From positions 41,232,001 to 41,296,000 of the forward strand of contig NC_086108.1 in the NCBI RefSeq assembly GCF_963921235.1: DNA of 64,000 bases, read 5' to 3'. The notes below the pieces were generated by a model that did not search any database, was not told where the DNA came from, and saw only the letters and a list, made by a program, of their open reading frames with translations. The stretch's first letter is position 1. Each line of letters opens with the position of its first letter. The DNA comes from Mobula hypostoma. Lineage: Eukaryota. Of this stretch, positions 1,911-59,170 are shown in pieces. A program made the translations under genes and the position numbers.

Positions 1911-3000
1911 ATCAGAATCAGAATCAGGTTTATTATCATTGGCATGTGTTGTGAAATTCATTAACTTGGCAGCAGCAATTCAATGCAATACGTAATACAG
2001 AAGAAGAAGAAAAATAATAAATATTGAATACATTAAAATCATGCAAAAAACAGAAATAATTGTATATTAAAAAAGAGAGGTAGTGTTCACGGGTTCAATG
2101 TCCATTTAGGAATCAGATGGCAGAGGGGAGGAAGCTGTTCCTGAATCGCTGAGTGTGTGCCTTCAGGCTTCTGTACCTCCTACCTGATGGTAACAGTGAG
2201 AAAAGGCCATGCCCTGGGTGCTGGAGGTCCTTAATAACGGACGCTGCTTTTCTGAAACACAGCTCCTTGAAGATATCCTGGGTACTTAGTAGGCTAGTGC
2301 CCAAAATGGAGCTGACTAGATTTACAACCCTCTGCAGCTTCTTTTGGTCCTGTGCAGTAGCCCCCCCCCCCCACAACCAGACAGTGATGCAGCCTGTCAG
2401 AATGCTCTCCACAGTACATCTATAGAAGTTTTTGAGTGTATTTGTTGACATACCAAAACTCTTCAAACTCCTAATGAAGTACAGTCGCTGTCTTGTCTAC
2501 TTTATAACTGCATCGATATATTGGGACCAGGTTAGATCCTCAGAGATCTTGACACTCCAGGAACTTGAAGCTGCTCACTCTCTCCACTTCTGATCCCTCT
2601 ATGAGGATTGTTGTGTGTTCCTTCGTCTTACCCTTCCTGAAGTCCACAATCAGCTCTTTCATCTTACTGGCATTGGGTGCAAGGTTATTGCTGTGACACC
2701 ACTCCTCTAGTTGGCATATCTCACTCCTGTACGCCCTCTTGTCTCCATCTGAAATTCTACCAACAATGGTTGTATTGTCAGCAAATTTGTAGATGATATT
2801 TAAGCTATACCTAGCTACACAGTCATGGGTATAGAGAGAATAGAGCAGTGGGCTAAGCACAAATCCCTGAGGTGAACCAGTGTTGATTGTCAGCGAGGAG
2901 GAGATATTATCACCAACCCACACAGATTGTGGTCTTCCGGTTAGGAAGTCCAGGATCCAATTGCAGAGGGAGGTACAGAGGCCCAAGTTCTGTAACTTAT
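1911..3000 (-). mobile_element. Rex1/Babar-type LINE, 5'-truncated, RT C-terminal half with frameshifts
   Basis: ORF 2540..3019 ([30 protein letters not shown]) and ORF 2113..2466 (FYRCTVESILT...HPGHGLFSLLPSGRRYRS). (ATTCTG)n tail at 1911-1926. Confidence 0.9.
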
Positions 3001-3759
3001 GAATGGGCTTGCTGTTCACATGCCAGGCCTAACCTTGTGACTCTTCATTTGTTACATTTCACAGCATAAGTCGTTACGTATCTAGATAGGATGCTTTCTA
3101 TGGTACATTGATAAAAATTGGTAAAGTTCGATAGGGACATAACAAATTTCTTTAGCCATCTGTGGAATTAGAGGCTGTGGCACTTACGTGGCTGGGCCAG
3201 GACAGGGCATTTATAATGTTCATTTCTACGAACTTGAAACTCAACCATCTCAACCTCAACACCATTGATGTAGACAAAGACAAAAATCTAATATGCAAAA
3301 GAGGACAATCTGTGCCAATAAAAATAATACTGCGAATGTGAGTTGTAAAGAGACCCTGAATGAGAGTCTGTAGATAATAGAATCATTTCAGAGTAATGGT
3401 GACTAAACTTATCTATGCCGGGTTCAGGAGCCTGATGGTTGTTGGGTAATAATTGTTCCTGAACCTGGTGGTGTGGGCACCAAGGATTCTGTATCTCCTC
3501 CGTCATGGTAGTGGCAAGAAGAGGGCATAGGCTTGATGGTGAGGGTCTTTGATGATGAATACTGCTTCCTGAAGTCAACGTCCATTTCTTCTGTTTTGCT
3601 GATCTTAATGGATAGGCTGTTGTCATGACACCATGTCACTAAGCTCTCTAACTCCTTATTGTTCTCCAACTTATCAATATTTATGAAATGCCCATGACAG
3701 TAGTGTCATATACAAACTTGTAAATGTAGTTAGAGCACAGTCTGGCCATGTAGTTTGGA

Positions 3760-5196
3760 GTATTCATAAGTTTTCACCTCCTTTAATATGACACACCCAA
3801 TCATTACTGTTGCAGCCAATTGGTTTTAGAAGTAATATCATTAGTTAAATGGAGATCACCGTGTGCAGTCAGGGTGCTTCAATTGATAGTAGTAAAAATA
3901 CACCTGTACCTGTAAGGTCCAACTGCAGGTGAATCAGTATCCTAGCAAAAAACTACACTATGAAGACAAAAGAACACTCCAAGCAATTCCATGAGAAGGT
4001 TATAGAAAATCACAAGTCAGGAGATCAATATAAGAAAAGTTCCAAGACACTGAATATCCCTGGAGTACAGTTAAGTTAGTCATCAAGAAATGGAAAGAAT
4101 ATGGCACAATTGTAAATCTGTCTAGAGTAGGCCATCCTCAAAAACTGAGTGACCAGGCAAGAAGGGGACTAGTGAGGGAGACCACCAAGAGACTTATGAT
4201 AACTCTGGAGGAGTTCCAAGCTCCAGTGGCTGAGATGGGAGAGACAGCGCATGAAACAACTGTTGCCAGGTTGCTTCAGCAGTCTCAGCTTTATGGGAGA
4301 GTGGCAAAGAGAAAGACACTGTTGAAAAACACTCACATGAAATCTCAGCTAGAGTTTGCCAGAAGGCATGTGGGAGATTCTGAATCGGTTAGAAGTAGGT
4401 TTTATGGTCTGACGAAACCAAAATTGAGCTTCTTCCTCATTATACTAAGTGCTATGTTTAGCATAAGCCAAACACAGAGCATCATCATCATCACCATCCC
4501 TACCATGAAGCATGGTAGTAGCTACATCATGCTATGGGGATGCTTCACTGCAGCATGTCCAAAAGAGCTTGTGAAGATAGAGGGTAAACGGAATACAATA
4601 AAGCACAAGAAAATCATGGAAGAAAACCTGCTGCAGCCTGTAAAAGACCTGCAACTTGGGAGAAGATTTGTTTTCCAGTAAGACAATAACCCCAAGCATA
4701 AAGCCCAACCCACACAGAAATTGCTTAAAACAACTAGGTTAATGTCTTGGAGTGGCCAAGTCAGGGTCCAGACCTCAATCCAATTGAGAATTTGTGGCTG
4801 GACTTGAAAAGGACTGTTCATGCATGATCCCCACGCAATCTGACAGAGTTTGAGCAGTTTTGTAAAGAAGAATTGGGAAAAATTGCAGTGTCCAGATGTG
4901 CAAAGCTGATAGAGACCTATCCCCATAGCCTCAAGGCTATAATTGCTGCCAAAGATGCACCTACTAAATACTGACTTGAAGGGGGTGAGTAATTATGCAA
5001 TTAATTATTTTTTGTTTTATATTTATAATTAATTTAGATGACTTTGTAGAGATCTGTTTTCCCTTTGACATGAAAGAGTCTTTTTCTGTTGATCAGTGTC
5101 AAAAAAAAGCCAAATTAAATCCACTGTGATTCAATGTTTTAAAACAATGAAATATGAAAACTTCCAAGAGGGGGTGAGTACTTTGTATCGGCACTG
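3760..5196 (+). mobile_element. Tc1-like DNA transposon of IR/DR type; left TIR missing
   Basis: Transposase remnant plus a ~220 bp right TIR ending CACTG (5196), with direct repeats GGGGGTGAGTA at ~4981 and ~5170. Confidence 0.9.
3960..4974 (+). pseudogene. Tc1 transposase pseudogene (frameshifts and stops)
   Basis: ATG at 3960 reads MKTKEHSKQFHEKVIENHKSG..., then KKWKEYGT..NLSRVGHPQKLS, ORF 4172..4681 (KHGSSYIMLWGCF...FVFQ*DNNPKH), WPSQGPDLNPIENLW, and ends TKY* at 4974. Confidence 0.9.
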
Positions 5197-16530: not shown

Positions 16531-16532
16531 AC

Positions 16533-16885
16533 GACACTCGGTGGCCACTTTACTAGGTACAGGAGTGGAACCCAGTGTGGTCTTCAGCTGCTGTAGCCAT
16601 TCCACACAAAGGTTCGACTTACTGTGCTTTCAGAGATGTTCTGCTATAATGTGCGGTTATTTGAGTTACTGCCACCTTCCTGTTAGGCTAAACCTGCCTG
16701 ACTATTCTCTTCTGACCTCTCTCATTAACAAGGCTTTTTCGCCCACAGAACTGCTGGTCACTGGACGTTCTTTTGGTTTTTTGCACTATTTTCTGCAAAC
16801 TCTACAGAAAGCTGTGCGTGAAAATCCCAGCAGACTAGCAGTTTCTGAGATATCAAACCACCCTGTATGGCATCAACAGTCATTG
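16533..16885 (-). mobile_element. Internally deleted Tc1-like element of a second family
   Basis: TIR-like 'cactcggtggccactttactaggtac'. The minus strand encodes the Tc1 N-terminal HTH remnant ISETASLLGFSRT. Confidence 0.7.
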
Positions 16886-16944
16886 CTGACGATAGATAGA
16901 CTGGATGGATGTTCAACCAATGAAACTTATACACCTCAGATGGA

Positions 16945-17310
16945 TCTGGAAGTGCATAAGATGATGAGAGGCATTGATCGTGTGGATATTGATCGTGGGC
17001 TTTTTCCCAGGGCTGAAATGGCTAACACGAGAGAGCACAGTTTTAAGGTGCTTGGAAGTAGGTACAGAGGAGATGTCAGGGGTAAGTCTTTTACGCAGAG
17101 AGTGGTGAGTGTGTGGAATGGGCTGCCAGCGATGGTGATGGAGTTGAATATGACAGGGTCTTTTAAGAGACTCTTGGATAGATACATGGAGCTTAGAAAA
17201 ATAGAGGGCTATGGGTAATCCTAGGTAATTTCTAAAGTAACGACATGTTCAGCACAGCTTTGTGGGCCGAAGGGCCTGTATTGTGCTGTAGGTTTTCTAT
17301 GTTTCTATAT
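16945..17310 (+). mobile_element. CR1 LINE 3' end, second subfamily
   Basis: KMMRGIDRV...HSFKVLGSRYRGDVRGKSFTQRVVSVWNGLP, then a 3'UTR stem-loop and (TTTCTATG)n tail. Confidence 0.9.
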
Positions 17311-18144: not shown

Positions 18145-18775
18145 TAAGCAGTTGTAAATCAAGGTAACTGGACTTGCTGTGTTGTCTAGAAGACATTTCA
18201 CCACTCATCTGAAAGGCTTCTTCAGTTCTGATCCATGGTGGCTAGTTTTCCAGTTATTAAACTCTGTGAAATGTTTAAAGGTATAGCAATTACATAAGGG
18301 TTGTTAAGAGTCGCAGAGGTAGTAAGAGGGTCATTGCGTGAATAGAGGTGCAAATTGTTGTGGAGCTGCTGGGTTAGAGATGTTCGGATCGCTTTGTAAG
18401 TAGCTGATAGACAGTGTCATACCCAACCCCCTCTGTTTAGGGATGGGTTTTCCAGTTTGACAAAGATGGCTTTCCCTGTCCAAAATGTGCACATTGTTAT
18501 CATCAATGGAGTGTCCCTTGTCCTTTAGATGTAGATATACAGTCAAATCTTGACCTGAGGTGTTAGACCTTCTATGTTGTGCCATCCATTTGTGAAGTGG
18601 TTGTTTTGTCTTACCATCTGTGCAGTTCTCATTGCTTTGGATAGCATATACAATATTGTTCTGTTTATGTCTGGGTGTAGGATCATTGGGGTGGACAAGT
18701 TTCTCTCAGAGTGTGTTTGAGGATTTGAAAAACCCAGGGATTTGGTGTTTGTTGATCAAAGAAGGGCTAACACCT
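18145..18775 (-). mobile_element. Penelope-like element, second family: GIY-YIG remnant plus pLTR
   Basis: ORF 18331..18585 'MAQHRRSNTSGQDLTVYLHLKDKGHSIDDNNVHILDRE' is a Penelope endonuclease C-terminal segment. A hammerhead motif lies downstream. Confidence 0.85.
18187..18230 (-). ncRNA. Minimal type I hammerhead ribozyme motif
   Basis: Minus strand: AGAA-CUGAAGA-A-GCCUUUC AGAU GAGUGGU-GAAA-UG-UC^-UUCU. The core is intact, stem I has 4 bp and stem II can form. Confidence 0.75.
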
Positions 18776-18779
18776 GACG

Positions 18780-19150
18780 TTATTATGAAAGGAATAGATA
18801 AGGTAGGGACAGGAAAGTTGTTTCCACTGGTAGGTGAGACTAGAACAAGGAGACATAGCCTCAAGATTCGGGGGAGTAGATCTCGGACAGAGATGAGGAG
18901 GAACTGCTTTTCCCAGAGAGTGGTGAATCTGTGGAATACTCTGCCCAATGAAACAGTGGAGGCTACCTCTGTAAATATATTTAAGATAAGGGTGGATAGA
19001 TTTTTGCATAGTAGGGGAATTAAGAGTTATGGAGAAAAGGCAGGTAGGTGGAGTTGAGTCCATGGCCAGATCAGCCATGATCTTATTGAATGGCGGAGCA
19101 GGCTCGATGGGCCTGATGGTCCACTCCTGCTCCTATTTCTTATTTCTTAT
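18780..19150 (+). mobile_element. CR1 LINE 3' end, third subfamily
   Basis: ORF 18620..19057 C-terminus (RTRRHSLKIRGSRSRTEMRRNCFSQRVVNLWNTLP) and tail TTTCTTAT repeats. Confidence 0.9.
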
Positions 19151-21289: not shown

Positions 21290-22345
21290 TATAAAGCAAG
21301 GAGGCATGGGATCTAAGGGGACATTGCTTTGTGGATCCAGAACTGGCTTGCTCACAGAAGGCAAAGAGTGGTTGTAGACGGGTCATATTCTGCATAGAGG
21401 TCGGTCACTAGTGGTGTGCCTCAGGGGTCTGTTCTGGAACCCCTCCTCTTTGTTATTTTTATAAATGACCTGGATGAGGAAGTGGGGCAATGGGTTAGTG
21501 TGGAGGGCTGTCAGAGAATACAGCGGGACATTGATAGGATGCAAAACTGGGCTGAGAAGTGACAGATGGAGTTGAACCCAGATAAGTGTGAAGTGGTTTA
21601 TTTTGATAGGTCAAATATGATGGCAGAATATAGTATTAATGGCAGTGTGGAGGATCAGAGGGATCTTGGGGATCGAGTCCATAGGACACTCAAAGCTGCT
21701 GTGCAGGTTGACTCTGTGGTTAAGAAGGCATACGGTGTATTGGCCTTCATCAATCGTGGGATTGAGTTTAGGAGCCGAGAGGTAATGTTGCAGCTATATA
21801 GGACCCTGGTCAGACACCACTTCGAGTACTGTGCTCAGTTCTGGTCGCCTCACTACAGGAAGGATGTGGAAACCATAGAAAAGGTGCAGAAGAGATTTAC
21901 AAGGATGTTACCTGGATTGGGGAGCATACTTTATGAGAATAGGTTGAGTGAACTCGGCCTTTTCTCCTTGGAGCGACGGAGGATGAGAGGTGACCTGATC
22001 AAGGTGTATAAGATGATGAGAGACATTGATCGTGTGGATAGTCACAGGCTTTTTTCCAGGGCTGAAACGGCTAGCATGAGAGGGCACAGTTTTAAGATGC
22101 TTGGAAGTAGGTACAGAGGTGATGTCAGGGGTAGGTTTTTTATGCAGAGCGTGTGGAACGGGCTACCGGCGACAGTGGTGGAGTCGGATACGATACGGTC
22201 TTTCAAGAGACTCCTGGCTAGGTACATGGAGCTTAGAAAAGTAGTGGGCTATGGGTAACCCTAGGTAATTTCAAAGGTAAGGACAAGTTCGGCACAGCTT
22301 TGTGGGCTGAAGGGCCTGTATTGTGCTGTAGGCTTTCTATGTTGC
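21290..22345 (+). mobile_element. 5'-truncated CR1 LINE, second subfamily, with RT C-terminus
   Basis: [20 protein letters not shown] at ~21410-21480, ORF 21566..22258 (NPDKCEV, LYRTLVR.HFEYCAQFWSPHY), and tail. Confidence 0.92.
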
Positions 22346-40382: not shown

Positions 40383-41905
40383 CAGGCACGGAAGTATTGT
40401 TCATGTAGAAAAAATTCTTGCCCAGTAAATGAAAGTTAAAATAGCCAACATCAAAGTTTCACTCCCAATGTCAGTATTGAGTTTTTTTCCATTAATCACA
40501 GTTAATGATTCCATCTTGATGCAACAGCTGCACCTTAATTTTTTTTGATAAGTTACTTATTAATTTTAAAACTTCATGGGTTTAATCTGATCATGCCATT
40601 AACATCAAATACTCAAAAGTTTTATTCACAGGTGACTATTTACAATTTTGTACTTTACTGATTAAATTTCTACTTCACATTAGGAAATGTAGGAAGCTAT
40701 ATGGATATTAAAACTAAAAAAAAAATCCAGTATTCTCCTAGGCTCAAAGTTAAAGGTTGGAATTGAATGGAATATTCTTTGCTCTGGATAGGATTAGAAA
40801 CTTTCAAACTGAAATTAAAGAAAGAAAATCATAGATTAATATAATCTTCGTCACAACCTCAAAACATCCAGAATAATCTATAGCTAATTTAAAATATATA
40901 GTCATTAGCGAAGCAGGAAATGTCTACTGACAACAAAGTAATAAAGTTCAGCTATTCTATATGTGTATTATTAGCCACTTGCAGCAGCTATCCTTCCAGA
41001 TCTTCTTCAACATAGTGCGATAGAATCTATCAAATACACTTGAAATAGCTAGAATAATTGTACAGAACATGTTTCATTATGAATAATCTTTTTTTCTTTG
41101 CTGCTATTTGTTTAGGAGGTGTATTCATTCCTACCACATACTTGAGAACCAGGGTTTGGAACCAACTGGTTCAGATGGAAATAAATTAATTGTTGACAGT
41201 GCTGTACGTTCATTCTAAAATTGATCAATTATGTTTAACTCTTTACCATTTGAAGCATCTCCAGTTTTAGGCTATGGAATAATTAAAGTTCACTTAAATG
41301 CTTAACAACTGCAGGAAGCTCGATAGTGCAGGTTGACATTATGAACTAAACAAAAGTTACTGTTACTTTTAGAAATGCACAAATATCTCCATCTGGAAGC
41401 TAGCAAAGAAACAAATGTACTTCTTCAGGAAGTTCTGTCAGCTGATGATCAGTGAAAACAATTGCATCTCATGAAAGTGAGTGACTTCCTCGGCCAAGGC
41501 ACGGTACAGTGAGATAATATGGCACAAAGCAGGAATTGTGGAATGATAAACAGTATAAATGCCTAGAAATTTGAAGACTTCATCTGAACTGATTGATCTA
41601 ACAATGGATAAATCCGTACTCCCTGATCTTTTGATCGGCGCAGCTACACTGGGATCAGGGACACTGAGCAACAGGTTGCAGAGACCACAAGGTGTTTCCT
41701 TTTGAGAGTGAAAGGGAGATCTTCCTTAAGTGTTGTACAAAATATAGTAATGAAACATTGACAGCAGGCACCAAATAATGGGAACCATAGTCAGTGTTGT
41801 AGCTCAGTTCCACATATAGAAACATAGAAAATAGGTGCAGGAGTAGGCCATTCGGCCCTTTGAGCCTGCACCGCCATTTATTATGATCATGGCTGATCAT
41901 CCAAC

Positions 41906-44900
41906 TCAGAACCCCGCCCCAGCCTTCCCTCCATACCCCCTGACCCCCATAGCCACAAGGGCCATATCTAACTCCCTCTTAAACATAGCCAATGAACTGG
42001 CCTCAACAGTTTGCTGTGGCAGAGAATTCCACAGATTCACCACTCTCTGTGTGAAGAAGTTTTTCCTAATCTCGGTCCTAAAAGGCTTCCCCTCTATCCT
42101 CAAACTGTGACCCCTCGTTCTGGACTTCCCCAACATCGGAACAATCTTCCTGCATCTAGCCTGTCCAATCCCTTTAGGACCTTATACGTTTCAATCAGAT
42201 CCCCCCTCAATCTTCTAAATTCCAACGAGTACAAGCCCAGTTCATCCAGTCTTTCTTCATATGAAAGTCCTGCCATCCCAGGAATCAATCTGGTGAACTT
42301 TCTTTGTACCCCCTCTATGGCAAAGATGTCTTTCCTCAGATTAGGGGACCAAACCTGCACACAATACTCCAGGTGTGGTCTCACCAAGACCTTGTACAAC
42401 TGCAGTAGTACCTCCCTGCTCCTGTACTCGAATCCTCTCGCTATAAATGCCAGCATACCATTCGCCTTTTTCACCGCCTGCTGTACCTGCATGCCCACTT
42501 TCAACGGCTGGTGTATAATGACACCCAGGTCTCGTGGCACCTCCCCTTTTCCTAATCGGCCACCATTCAGATAATAATCTGTTTTCCTATTTTTGCCACC
42601 AAAGTGGATAACTTCACATTTATCCACATTAAATTGCATCTGCCATGAATTTGCCCACTCACCCAACCTATCCAAGTCACCCTGCATCCTCTTAGCATCC
42701 TCCTCACTGCTAACACTGCCACCCAGCTTCGTGTCATCCGCAAACTTGGAGATGCTGCATTTAATTCCCTCATCCAAGTCATTAATATATATTGTAAACA
42801 ACTGGGGTCCCAGCACTGAGCCTTGCGGTACCCCACTAGTCACCGCCTGCCATTCTGAAAAGGTCCCGTTTATTCCCACTCTTTGCTTCCTGTCTGCTAA
42901 CCAATTCTCCACCCACACCAATACCTTACCCCCAATACCGTGTGCTTTAAGTTTGCACACTAATCTCCTGTGTGGGACCTTGTCAAAAGCCTTTTGGAAA
43001 TCCAAATATACCACATCCACTGGTTCTCCCCTATCCACTCTACTAGTTACATCCTCAAAAAATTCTATGAGATTCGTCAGACATGATTTTCCTTTCACAA
43101 ATCCATGCTGACTTTGTCCGATCATTTCACCACTTTCCAAATGTGCTGTTATCACATCCTTGATAACTGACTCCAGCAGTTTCCCCACCACCGACGTTAG
43201 GCTAACCGGTCTATAATTCCCCGGTTTCTCTCTCCCTCCTTTTTTAAAAAGTGGGGTTACATTAGCCACCCTCCAATCCTCAGGAACTAGTCCAGAATCT
43301 AACGAGTTTTGAAAAATTATCACTAAGGCATCCACTATTTCTTGGGCTACTTCCTTAAGCACTCTGGGATGCAGACCATCTGGCCCTGGGGGTTTATCTG
43401 CCTTCAATCCCTTCAATTTACCTAACACCACTTCCCTACTAACATGTATTTCACTCAGTTCCTCCATCTCACTGGACCCACTGTCCCTTACTATTTCTGG
43501 AAGATTATTTATGTCCTCCTTAGTGAAGACAGAACCAAAGTTATTATTCAATTGGTCTGCCATGTCCTTGCTCCCCATAATCAATTCACCTGTTTCTGTC
43601 TGCAGGGGACCTACATTTGTCTTTACCAGTCTTTTCCTTTTTACATATCTATAAAAGCTTTTACAGTCCATTTTTATGTTCTCTGCCAGTTTTCTCTCAT
43701 AATCTTTTTTCCCCTTCCTAATTAAGCCCTTTGTCCTCCTCTGCTGAACTCTGAATTTCTCCCAGTCCTCAGGTGAGCCACTTTCTCTGGCTAATTTGTA
43801 TGCTACTTCTTTGGAATTGATACTATCCCTAATTTCTCTTGTCAGCCACAGGTGCACTACCTTCCTTGATTTATTCTTTTGTCAAACTGGGATGAACAAT
43901 TGTTGTAGTTCATCCATGCAACCTTTAAATGCTTGCCATTGCATATCCACCGTCAACCCTTTAAGTGTCATTTGCCAGTCTATCTTAGCTAATTCACGTC
44001 TCATACCTTCAAAGTTACCCCTCTTTAAGTTCAGAACCTTTGTTTCTGAATTAACTATGTCACTCTCCATATTAATGAAGAATTCCACCATATTATGGTC
44101 ACTCTTACCCAAGGGGCCTCTCACGACAAGATCGCTAATTAACCCTTCCTCATTGCTCAAAACCCAGTCCAGAATAGCCTGCTCTCTAGTTGGTTCCTCG
44201 ACATGTTGGTTCAAAAAACCATCCCGCATACATTCCAAGGAATCCTCTTCCTCAGCACCTTTACCAATTTGGTTCACCCAGTCTACATGTAGATTGAAGT
44301 CACCCATTATAACTGCTGTTCCTTTATTGCACACATTTCTAATTTCCTGTTTAATACCATCTCCAACCTCACTACTACTGTTAGGTGGCCTGTACACAAC
44401 TCCCACCAGCGTCTTCTGCCCCTTAGTGTTACGCAGCTCTACCCATATCGATTCCACATCTTCCCGGCTTATGTCCTTCCTTTCTATTGCGTTAATCTCT
44501 TCTCTAACCAGCAACGCCACCCCACCTCCCCTTCCTTCATGTCTATCCCTCCTGAATATTGAATATCCCTGAACGTTGAGCTCCCATCCCTGGTCACCCT
44601 GGAGCCATGTCTCTGTGATCCCAACTATATCATAATCATTAATAACAATCTGCACTTTCAATTCATCCACCTTATTACGAATGCTCCTTGCATTGACACA
44701 TAAAGCCTTCAGGCGCTCTTTTACAACTCTCTTAGCCCTTGTACAATTATGTTGAAAAGTGGCCCTTTTTAATGCTTGCCCTGGATTTGTCGGCCTGCCA
44801 CTTTTACTTTTCTCCTTTGTACTTTTTGCTTCTACGCTCACTTTACACCCCTCTGTCTCTCTGCACTGGTTCCCATCCCTCTGTTGTGAACTAACCTCCT

Positions 44901-44952
44901 CACGCCTAGCCTCTTTAATTTCAGTCCCACCCCCCAACCATTCTAGTTTAAA
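41906..44952 (-). pseudogene. CR1 ORF2 (AP endonuclease plus reverse transcriptase) with one nonsense codon and one frameshift
   Basis: [61 protein letters not shown]. ORFs 43882..44937 and 42100..43857 are in the same frame, separated by TGA at 43882-43884. A frameshift near 42138 leads into ORF 41906..42136. Confidence 0.95.
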
Positions 44953-45878
44953 GTCACCTCAGTAGCCTCCACTAATCTCCCTGCCAGGATATTGGTCCCC
45001 CTAGGATTCAAGTGTAACCCGTCCTTTTTGTACAGGTCACGCCTGCGCCAAAAGAGGTCCCAATGATCCAAAAACTTGAATCCCTGCCCCCTGCTCCAAT
45101 CCCTCAGCCACGCATTTATCCTCCACCTCATCGCATTCCTACTCTCACTATCGCGTGGCACAGGCAGTAATCCCGAGATTACTACCTTTGCGGTCCTTTT
45201 TCTCAACTCCCTTCCTAGCTCCCTATATTCTCCTTTCAGGACCTCATCCATTTTCCTACCTATGTCATTGGTACCTATATGTACCATGACCTCTGGCTCC
45301 TCACCCTCCCACTTCAGGATATCTTGGACACGATCAGAAATATCCCGGACCCTGGCACCAGGGAGGCAAACTACCATCCGGGTCTCTGGACTGCGTCCAC
45401 AGAATCGCCTATCTGACCCCCTTACTATCGAGTCCCCTATCACAACTGCCCTCCTCTTCCTTGCCCTACCCTTCTGAGCTACAGGGCCAGACTCTGTGCC
45501 GGAGGCACGGCCACTGTCGCTTCCCCCGGGTAAGCTGTCCCCCCCAACAGTACTCAAACAGGAGTACCTGTTGTTAAGGGGCACAGCCACCGGGGTACTC
45601 CCCATCACCTGACTTTTCCCCTTCCCCCTCCTAACCGTGACCCACTTGTCTGCCTCCCGTGGCCCCGGCGTGACCACCTGCCTTCCACTCCTCTCTATCA
45701 CCTCCTCACTGTCCCTGACCAGACGAAGGTCATCGAGCTGCAGCTCCAGTTCCGTAACGCGGTCCCTTAGGAGCTGCATCTCGATGCACTTGGCGCAGAT
45801 GTAGCCGTCCGGGAGGCTTGGAGACTCCAGGGCCTCCCACATCCGACACCGAGAACAGCAAACTGCCCTCACACTCAT
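44943..45878 (-). CDS. CR1 ORF1 protein: Cys-rich zinc-binding motif, leucine zipper, SGNH/GDSL esterase; intact
   Basis: CSRC...CAKC, LRDRVTELELQLDDLRL, and SGNH blocks IGDSIVR, CLPGA, HIGTND, DGLHLN. First ATG at 45878. Confidence 0.93.
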   Translation of the reverse strand: MSVRAVCCSRCRMWEALESPSLPDGYICAKCIEMQLLRDRVTELELQLDDLRLVRDSEEVIERSGRQVVTPGPREADKWVTVRRGKGKSQVMGSTPVAVPLNNRYSCLSTVGGDSLPGGSDSGRASGTESGPVAQKGRARKRRAVVIGDSIVRGSDRRFCGRSPETRMVVCLPGARVRDISDRVQDILKWEGEEPEVMVHIGTNDIGRKMDEVLKGEYRELGRELRKRTAKVVISGLLPVPRDSESRNAMRWRINAWLRDWSRGQGFKFLDHWDLFWRRRDLYKKDGLHLNPRGTNILAGRLVEATEVTLN

Positions 45879-46609
45879 AATGCCCCTCTCGTCAAATAGC
45901 AACAGAAAATGAATGTCAAACCTTCCTCGCCTCGCCCGCTTCCGCCTAAGCCCCTACTTCCCTAAAAAAAATAAATGTAACATTTTGATCAATCATTTTG
46001 AGACAAAGAATAAAACTAATAAAAGAATAAAAGAATAAAACTAATTTTATCTATGTGGCAAGCATAGGGAGGCACTAATTTTCAATCAGTTGTTCTCATA
46101 AATATCTTTATCCAGTGAAAAATGCGAAATACAGCACATAAGAAGAAAATGGTGCAAATGCTTAGCATCAGGCAGTAATTATGGAAGAAAAACACTTCGC
46201 AGTTTATCAACTTTTCATGCTCATTAAGCAATTGAGCTTGTGCACCAGATGAGATTTTCTTTGAAGATGAACCTCTGAAAATCCTTCGTCATCAGAATGG
46301 CAAATCTTGTCCAGAGACTTGACATGCGGTGGCCATGGGAAAAGCCAGTGCTCTTGAGGAAATGACATTATTAAACTTGTCCAAAGCACAACAAGGTCCC
46401 TGCAAACGGAATTGGGGGTGGAGAATTTGTGCTGCCGATGAGAATGCTCACCACTCACAGTGCTTTCCCACATTGCATCTCTACCATTAAAGTATATGTC
46501 AAACAGATGTGAATAAAATGTAACCAAAGACCATCACCTTTTTAATTCGAGCTACTTACTGAAGTTGAATTGGTACTACGTACTCAAATATTTGACAACT
46601 TTATTCACG

Positions 46610-58252: not shown

Positions 58253-59170
58253 TTAGATTAGATTAGATTCAACTTTATTGTCATTATGCCGAGTACAGAT
58301 ACAAAGCCAATGAAATGCATTTAGCATCTGACCAGAAATGCAAAGAATAGTGTTATTTACAACATAACTACGAATAAAAAGAAGTGCTATAACACACAAC
58401 TATAACAGTACTGAGACAGTACAATATGGGTGCAATACTGCTTAGCGCTGTGATGTGAGGTTCAGCAGTGTCACAGCCTCAGGGAAGAAGCTCTTCCTGT
58501 GCCTGCTGGTGCGGGAACCGAGGCTCCTGTAGTGCCTACTGGATTGGAGGAGAATAAAAAGTCCATGGTTAGGGTGAGATGCATCCCTGATAATGCTTTT
58601 CGCCCTGCCCAGGCAACGTTTATGGTAGATGTTCTTAATGGTGGGCAATTGGATGCCGATAATCCACTGGGCAGTTTTCACCACCCGCTGGAGTGCTTTA
58701 CGGTCTGATATGGAACAATTGCCATACCACACTGAGATGCAGTTGGTGACTATGCTCTCAATGGTACAGCGGAAAAAGTCCGTCAGTATCCTGGGACAGA
58801 GGTGAGCTTTCTTCATGCTCCGCCGGAAATAAAGCGCTTTTGCGCCTTTTTGATCAGGTTGGAGGAGTTCAGGGACCAGGTGAGATCCTCGGAAATGTGG
58901 ACACCAAGGATTCGGAAGTTTGATACACGCTCCACTACAGTTCCGTTGATGTAGATGGGGACGTGAGTGTGACTCCTGGCATGCCTGAAGTCCACAATGA
59001 TCTCCTTGGTCTTCTGGGTGTTAAGGGCCAGATTGTTGTTGGCACACCACGCAGCCAGGTGCTGGACCTCGTCCCTGTAGGCCGTCTCGTCATCCCCTCT
59101 GATCAGACCAACCACTGTGGTGTCGTCTGCAAACTTGATTATGGAGTTAGAACCATGTACAGGAACGCAT
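58253..59170 (-). mobile_element. Rex1/Babar-type LINE, 5'-truncated, (ATCTA)n tail
   Basis: ORF 58813..59115 (YRDEVQHLAAWCANNNLALNTQKTKEIIVDFR) and ORF 58442..58816, with KFADDTT upstream. Confidence 0.92.

Follow-up and report, generated by a model that had tools for sequence, protein, structure and literature searches.

A CR1 LINE of Mobula hypostoma probably translates its ORF2 by -1 programmed ribosomal frameshifting, as an ORF1-ORF2 fusion protein of ~1,320 amino acids. ORF1 ends on the slippery heptamer U_UUA_AAC followed directly by a stop codon, and ORF2 is read one base back without an AUG before its endonuclease, an arrangement that makes a -1 slip likely. A fusion of roughly 1300 residues had been put forward in the initial annotation of this DNA, and comparison of sequences lends it support: heptamer, stop and phase are conserved, and there is no conserved AUG. 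In essence, a minority of ribosomes would slip back by one base at the heptamer, with the Leu and Asn tRNAs slipping in tandem, to give a single ORF1-linker-endonuclease-RT protein with the junction L-N-L-E-W, and most would stop and release ORF1p, giving a ratio like that of gag to gag-pol. Somewhat less firmly, the slip may be promoted by a pause that arises from the adjacent stop and from a G run at a fixed 10-nt spacer.

The window, by which we mean the whole stretch of 64,000 nucleotides analysed, contains one near full-length copy of the element (Table 1), which we take to be a CR1 on the basis of its domain layout. Alignment of family copies showed 12 of 32 to match up to position 45953, and the 11 of these whose flank was listed run on there into common sequence that is absent from the window. 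The copy's 3' end carries a stem-loop and a short tandem tail. Residues 146-294 of ORF1 match Pfam PF13472 (E 2.6e-16), the cysteines of its N-terminal motif (C8, C11, C28 and C31) are conserved, and its closest named protein, 95% identical, is also from Mobula hypostoma. ORF2 matches PF03372 in the APE region (E 5.7e-13) and PF00078 in the RT (E 3.3e-34), the latter being 45% identical to a bird RT protein that does not bear the name CR1. The copy is inactive, with ORF2 broken by a stop at 43884-43882 and by a break of frame near 42140; most contigs from related runs have another base at 43882. CR1 LINEs are abundant in this genome, and a genome search with the window element returned 257 candidates, the best 40 of which are 97-100% identical. 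An esterase-type subgroup of vertebrate CR1 elements (type IVB, CR1_7), whose ORF1 joins zinc finger/leucine zipper and esterase, has been described (PMC4120745), and the window element shares the domain layout of both of its ORFs. The word "frameshift" is absent from that paper so far as its text was available, and the junction signal is an addition of the present work.

Several other features of the window were recorded in passing. ORFs at 16532-17218, 18596-19057 and 21563-22258, all on the plus strand, resemble by eye the C-terminal ends of ORF2 from other CR1-type families and are probably 5'-truncated copies, and those at 2540-3028 and 58442-59020 on the minus strand look, again by eye, like fragments of an RT, or of its C-terminal part, from a LINE of another type. 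The ORF at 4034-4681 (plus strand) resembles a fragment of a Tc1-type transposase. In one presumed-RNA run the contig depth summed over ORF1 (44984-45500) was ~6 to 270 times that over ORF2, although contig depth is a poor measure; the excess possibly comes from an ORF1-only derivative or from another family.

Table 1. Positions of the LINE copy and of its junction features in the window
Feature	Position	Strand	Remark
CR1-type LINE copy, near full-length	41816..45953	-	5' UTR truncated; inactive; family copies aligned
ORF1, 311 aa + TAG	44943..45878	-	N-terminal Cys motif, SGNH/GDSL esterase domain, C-terminal T-L-N
ORF2 frame	41906..44958	-	APE endonuclease from ~44712, RT ~43236-42583
TGA closing the -1 (ORF2) frame upstream	44959..44961	-	limits any shift to 13 nt
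Slippery heptamer U_UUA_AAC (TTTAAAC)	44946..44952	-	on the last two ORF1 codons, phased T TTA AAC
ORF1 stop TAG	44943..44945	-	directly after the heptamer
AUG 1 nt past the ORF1 stop	44939..44941	-	+1 frame; start of a 6-codon ORF; other lineages do not conserve it
Conserved G run, GGGGGG-T-GGG	44926..44935	-	candidate 3' stimulator; starts 10 nt after the heptamer
Linker, heptamer to APE	44713..44952	-	80 codons in the -1 frame, free of AUG and of stops
3' UTR stem-loop	41834..41872	-	C-rich 3' arm; long-range pairing with the G run possible but unsupported

The position and correct phase of the heptamer were confirmed, as was the overlap of the two frames, which is 13 nt before the ORF1 stop because the upstream TGA closes the -1 frame. 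The first in-frame AUG of ORF2 was correctly placed by the initial annotation beyond the endonuclease motifs NARS and ETW, and its distance, given there as about 210 codons, is refined to 215 codons past the heptamer (position 44307); ahead of it lie NARS at codon 86, ETW at codon 113 and YRPP at codon 186. The G-rich tract reported after the heptamer is likewise present; its distance was put at 6 nt, and the conserved part in fact begins 10 nt after the heptamer, at 44935. Within the 64-kb window, counting both strands, the string TTTAAAC-TAR is found three times; with a G run at the same spacing it is found only once, at this junction.

Close copies of the element preserve this arrangement. 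Among 30 of them, the heptamer is exact in 29 and is followed by a stop in 27, and in 29 the APE lies in the -1 phase behind an open, Met-free linker. A linker of this kind is found in 31 of 33 family copies, with no AUG between heptamer and APE in any of the 31 open ones, and in a representative copy the other two frames of the linker contain 5 and 8 stops. An insertion or deletion in the run of six Gs could in principle place the nearby AUG in frame with ORF2, a state that had been named as fatal to the frameshift reading. It is not the state of the family: ORF2 stays in the -1 phase in 29 of 30 copies, and the lone copy with seven Gs is broken.

The same signal recurs in other CR1 lineages of this genome. 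Divergent ORF1 proteins and direct fetches led to seven groups with 122 copies, after removal of eight repeats (L131-L138). The heptamer is exact in 105 of these and runs directly into a stop (TAG or TAA, according to lineage) in 98; GGGG starting at +11 is present in 100. The linker is in the -1 phase in 86 of the 118 copies with an APE hit, and we infer that many of the out-of-phase copies are explained by decay after insertion. Group C, which is old, degraded and the weakest of the seven, keeps an exact heptamer in 10 of its 21 copies and an open frame in 2 of 21. The typical linker varies between group representatives from 129 to 312 nt, and overall linker lengths range from 96 to 312 nt. 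Two details call for comment. Matches of group H (L159-L170) to its query, P0050, are nearly confined to residues 136-344, so that either its N-terminal part is different or the gene model of P0050 is chimeric, and indels have often lengthened the G run in this group. L174 has its ORF2 end ~420 nt farther away from the junction than its sister copies do, which suggests an insertion.

Beyond this genome, 83 of the 120 ORF1 homologues listed end in L-N, with named examples from rays, sharks, coelacanth, frogs, turtles, squamates and a hummingbird, and many of those that lack this end are truncated or chimeric. The residue before L-N is one whose codons are unable to end in T in only 2 of the 83; at the two preceding positions the corresponding numbers are 36 and 35. 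Two of the L-N-ending records, P0020 and P0085, are labelled Pseudomonas aeruginosa and Protopolystoma xenopodis and are likely to be contamination from vertebrate hosts. A metagenome scan with an ORF1 alignment, the seed motif of which is far from the junction, returned 40 loci. The 19 that continue for at least 25 nt past the projected end of ORF1 were counted (the other 21 end earlier): the heptamer is exact in 15, reads G_UUA_AAC in one and TTTAAAT in another, and is missing from two, these last (L126 and L130) being loci in which ORF1 homology ends earlier. Fourteen of the metagenome loci, not chosen for phase, had an APE hit, and in 12 it was in the -1 phase behind an open linker; in a further locus, L112, the frame is broken. 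The closest ORF1 proteins of these loci range from bird-like to unnamed. Searches of plasmids and of prokaryote genomes found no relatives, and the sole match among viral contigs (L171) encodes an SGNH protein but does not have the junction. Longer, fused proteins gave 22 matches that look like chimeric gene models and tell nothing of natural fusions; one of them has F-K-L-x-x-x-G before the APE. An unnamed protein of 634 residues, P0210, runs in frame from the end of ORF1 through F-K-L into the APE motifs.

Could such conservation arise at the level of the protein, or by chance inheritance, with L-N ending an esterase helix and F-K-L-x-x-x-G beginning the ORF2 frame? Overlapping frames do constrain codons, and the lineages share ancestry, so that counts over them are not independent trials. 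We compared 20 representatives, with a median identity of 31% over the C-terminal part of ORF1; those from this genome were picked among open copies, and junction sites were located as the best heptamer match near the projected ORF1 end. Codons were examined in 18, L092 and L121 being excluded for breaks in the ORF1 frame. The last Leu of ORF1 is TTA in 18 of 18, against 33 of 256 Leu codons (13%) elsewhere in ORF1, and for the last Asn 17 of 18 use AAC, a codon that accounts for 35 of 88 elsewhere. At each of three other conserved Leu columns the number of codons in use is four or five, from which it follows that synonymous sites had time to change. The wobble base preceding TTA is T in 19 of 20 representatives, the exception giving G_UUA_AAC, a heptamer listed for equine arteritis virus (PMC5009743). 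The -1 frame is open for no more than 15 nt upstream of the heptamer in 13 of 20. From ORF1 codon usage, the chance of this exact coding of x-Leu-Asn is ~0.018 per independent lineage. These sequence comparisons indicate that the constraint on the heptamer acts on nucleotides, beyond what the protein needs. Moreover, F-K-L in the -1 frame is encoded only if that frame is translated, which requires entry at or upstream of the heptamer, and the fixed codons stand out against synonymous sites that are scrambled elsewhere. An origin in protein-level constraint or chance inheritance is thus exceedingly improbable. The comparative test that the initial annotation had proposed, across CR1 lineages, has accordingly come out in its favour, with heptamer, adjacent stop and -1 phase all kept.

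The alternative with precedent among LINEs is termination-reinitiation, in which ribosomes that have finished ORF1 resume translation in the -1 frame, from an AUG or a near-cognate codon close by, and make a separate ORF2p. This has been documented for SART1 and is favoured for L1 (PMC3708506, PMC5009743), and the functions of ORF1 have been argued to need a separate product (PMC3708506). Our survey of representatives and copies found no AUG that is conserved near the junction, and no conserved stop-start overlap of the SART1 type with its AUG in the ORF2 frame. Of 19 representatives, 7 have no AUG between heptamer and APE and 12 have some in-frame AUG in the linker, which in 6 of them, belonging to some bird-like and some ray lineages, lies only 3-4 codons after the heptamer; reinitiation could operate in these lineages for that reason. 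In the window family, where AUGs near the junction are absent or out of frame as they are in other lineages, AUG-based reinitiation would lose most of the endonuclease; the family does have an in-frame UUG 5 codons from the start of the heptamer. What reinitiation leaves unexplained is that TTA, AAC and the preceding T are fixed upstream of the stop, and that other slippery heptamers appear to have been swapped in (see below). We therefore consider it unlikely as the general route to ORF2.

It has also to be asked whether ORF2 is expressed from a spliced or internally started RNA, so that the motif would be a splice or promoter signal, consisting of a TATA-like TTTAAA and a G box. G runs resemble splicing-enhancer or Sp/KLF sites, and most representatives have AG at +10/+11 (A at +10 in 13 of 20). 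The window family, however, has TG at +10/+11 and no pyrimidine tract before it, and a message started internally would still offer no AUG ahead of the APE. A DNA motif, furthermore, needs no lock to the ORF1 codon phase, to the stop and to the -1 frame. Among the 15 contig joints listed of 35, from four presumed-RNA runs, none has splice-type ends, although repeat contigs of this kind cannot show absence and the result is given no weight here. Expression from such an RNA is, in our judgement, very unlikely.

The frameshift reading raises the question of what would stimulate the slip, and here the G run is the principal candidate. In 19 of 20 representatives a GGGG is set off from the heptamer by a spacer of exactly 10 nt (first base at +11); at any offset beyond +18 it is present in at most three. 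The base at +11 is G in all 20, even though the residue specified by its codon varies between L, Q, R, G, K and S, and the codon that follows is GGG in 19 of 20, that is, in every one of the 19 representatives with Gly at this position. The RNA downstream of the heptamer is purine-rich, and its folding was no stronger than that of shuffled sequence, with z-scores of -2.2 to +1.8 (70 and 120 nt, 18 loci). Minimum-free-energy folding of the 18 loci, a model that does not include pseudoknots, found no conserved stem-loop downstream of the heptamer, and duplex scans found no pairing partner for the G run that recurs across lineages. A G-quadruplex was considered as a stimulator and rejected: a two-tier quadruplex is predicted in only 5 of 18 loci, and several lineages have no second G patch.

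Pairing of the G run with the element's own 3' end was also considered. The element's own 3' UTR ranks high among downstream windows as a partner, but 16 elements showed no preference for the tail of their own group, and the C-rich arm is already paired in a conserved 3' stem. Five bird-like runs, which are of the GAAGG/GAGGG type and have a second G patch, favour the three bird-like tails available by ~5 kcal/mol, and three of seven ray G runs do so too, by 0.9-1.7 kcal/mol; the preference of the bird-like runs is a hint that falls short of support. As a separate observation, groups A, B, F and H have nearly the same 3' stem-loop (L172-L191, window 41872-41816) despite widely differing ORF1 sequences, and that of group E is different; the common stem-loop may reflect strong constraint or exchange of 3' ends.

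Most likely, the G run would act as a linear or protein-bound element rather than as a local hairpin or pseudoknot, a role that is favoured because the 10-nt spacer and the two-patch form match the geometry of the C-rich motif at the -2/-1 site in nsp2 of PRRSV. At that site, which depends on nsp1beta and PCBP, there is no downstream structure; two homopolymer patches, set off by a 10-nt spacer, form a conserved linear motif that works through the proteins bound to it (PMC4937337). The PRRSV motif is C-rich and that of CR1 G-rich, the heptamers differ, and the stimulating protein is known for PRRSV whereas the CR1 case is known from sequence alone. A broader proposal is that, across the range from cartilaginous fish to birds, a -1 fusion is the only form in which esterase-type CR1 elements produce their RT, and that its stimulator is a linear G run at a fixed 10-nt spacer, recognised either by a protein, whether ORF1p or a G-tract binder of the host, or by the 3' end of the element itself. 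We offer this tentatively, as a possibility about which we have more doubt than confidence.

A further line of evidence comes from a separate clade of ORF1 proteins, with support of 99/99 in the tree, that was reached by a search from a distant homologue (30 proteins). At the position of L-N, 13 of the 30 have the end x-G-N, where x is Q, K, V or A, always a residue whose codon can end in G, and is Q or K in 11 of the 13. Such ends would fit the heptamer G_GGA_AAC, and a swap of heptamers is possible on this protein evidence; U_UUA_AAC and G_GGA_AAC have been counted among the most shifty eukaryotic heptamers (PMC5009743). Several proteins of the clade end in F-F or F-L-G, which, again judged from protein sequence, fits other slippery heptamers, and 9 of the 30 have ends that fit no slippery heptamer seen. 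Five proteins (P0144, P0146, P0155, P0157 and P0159) end in V-G-R, V-S-R, C-R-G or C-S-G and are nested among x-G-N relatives; in these the site may have shifted or the mechanism changed.

The junction holds a real, deeply conserved signal, which is best read as -1 frameshifting with a non-canonical downstream element. If this reading is true, frameshifting sets the ratio of ORF1p to RT and keeps the esterase and the RNA-binding part attached in cis to the enzyme; annotations that begin ORF2 at an internal AUG are in error, and constructs that express ORF2 only may miss the natural protein. A fixed G run without structure is, in addition, a short and directly testable candidate for an unusual frameshift stimulator. 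Should a linear G run prove to be the stimulator, a retrovirus-like strategy would operate in a dominant vertebrate LINE and a new class of natural stimulator would have been found, and reading of the run by ORF1p, a host protein or the 3' end would open the possibility of feedback control of retrotransposition. The potential reach is considerable, CR1 elements making up ~12% of chicken chromosomes (PMC11835228). The translation of LINE ORF2 from bicistronic RNA has been described as unclear (PMC3708506). No proposal of frameshifting for CR1 was found in the literature searched, which did not extend to older subscription papers and Repbase, and the part examined of a 2016 review of recoding contains no CR1 case (PMC5009743).

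The use of -1 frameshifting is textbook knowledge for viruses and LTR elements, and the CR1 junction can be set beside systems of several kinds. With SART1, which couples its ORFs through UAAUG, and with L1, where reinitiation is favoured, it has in common a bicistronic LINE RNA and entry into ORF2 at the end of ORF1 (PMC3708506, PMC5009743); it is unlike both in that neither a stop-start overlap nor an in-frame AUG is conserved, that the two frames overlap, and that the conserved signal is placed upstream of the stop. ORF1a/1b of coronaviruses and arteriviruses and retroviral gag-pol share with CR1 a phased X_XXY_YYZ heptamer, a polymerase ORF in the -1 frame without its own start, and a short overlap (PMC5009743, PMC7618472). 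Canonical sites of this kind have a structure 5-9 nt downstream (PMC7618472), whereas in CR1 no pseudoknot or stem-loop was found at that distance and a G run stands at 10 nt instead. CR1 also differs from these viral hosts of -1 sites in being a non-LTR retrotransposon, and no protease that would process the fusion was seen. Within the APE-type non-LTR elements there is a parallel in TRE5-A and TRE3-A of Dictyostelium, which are amoebal and have an unrelated ORF1: according to a legend in a review, a -1 frameshift is required for their ORF2 (PMC5911963).
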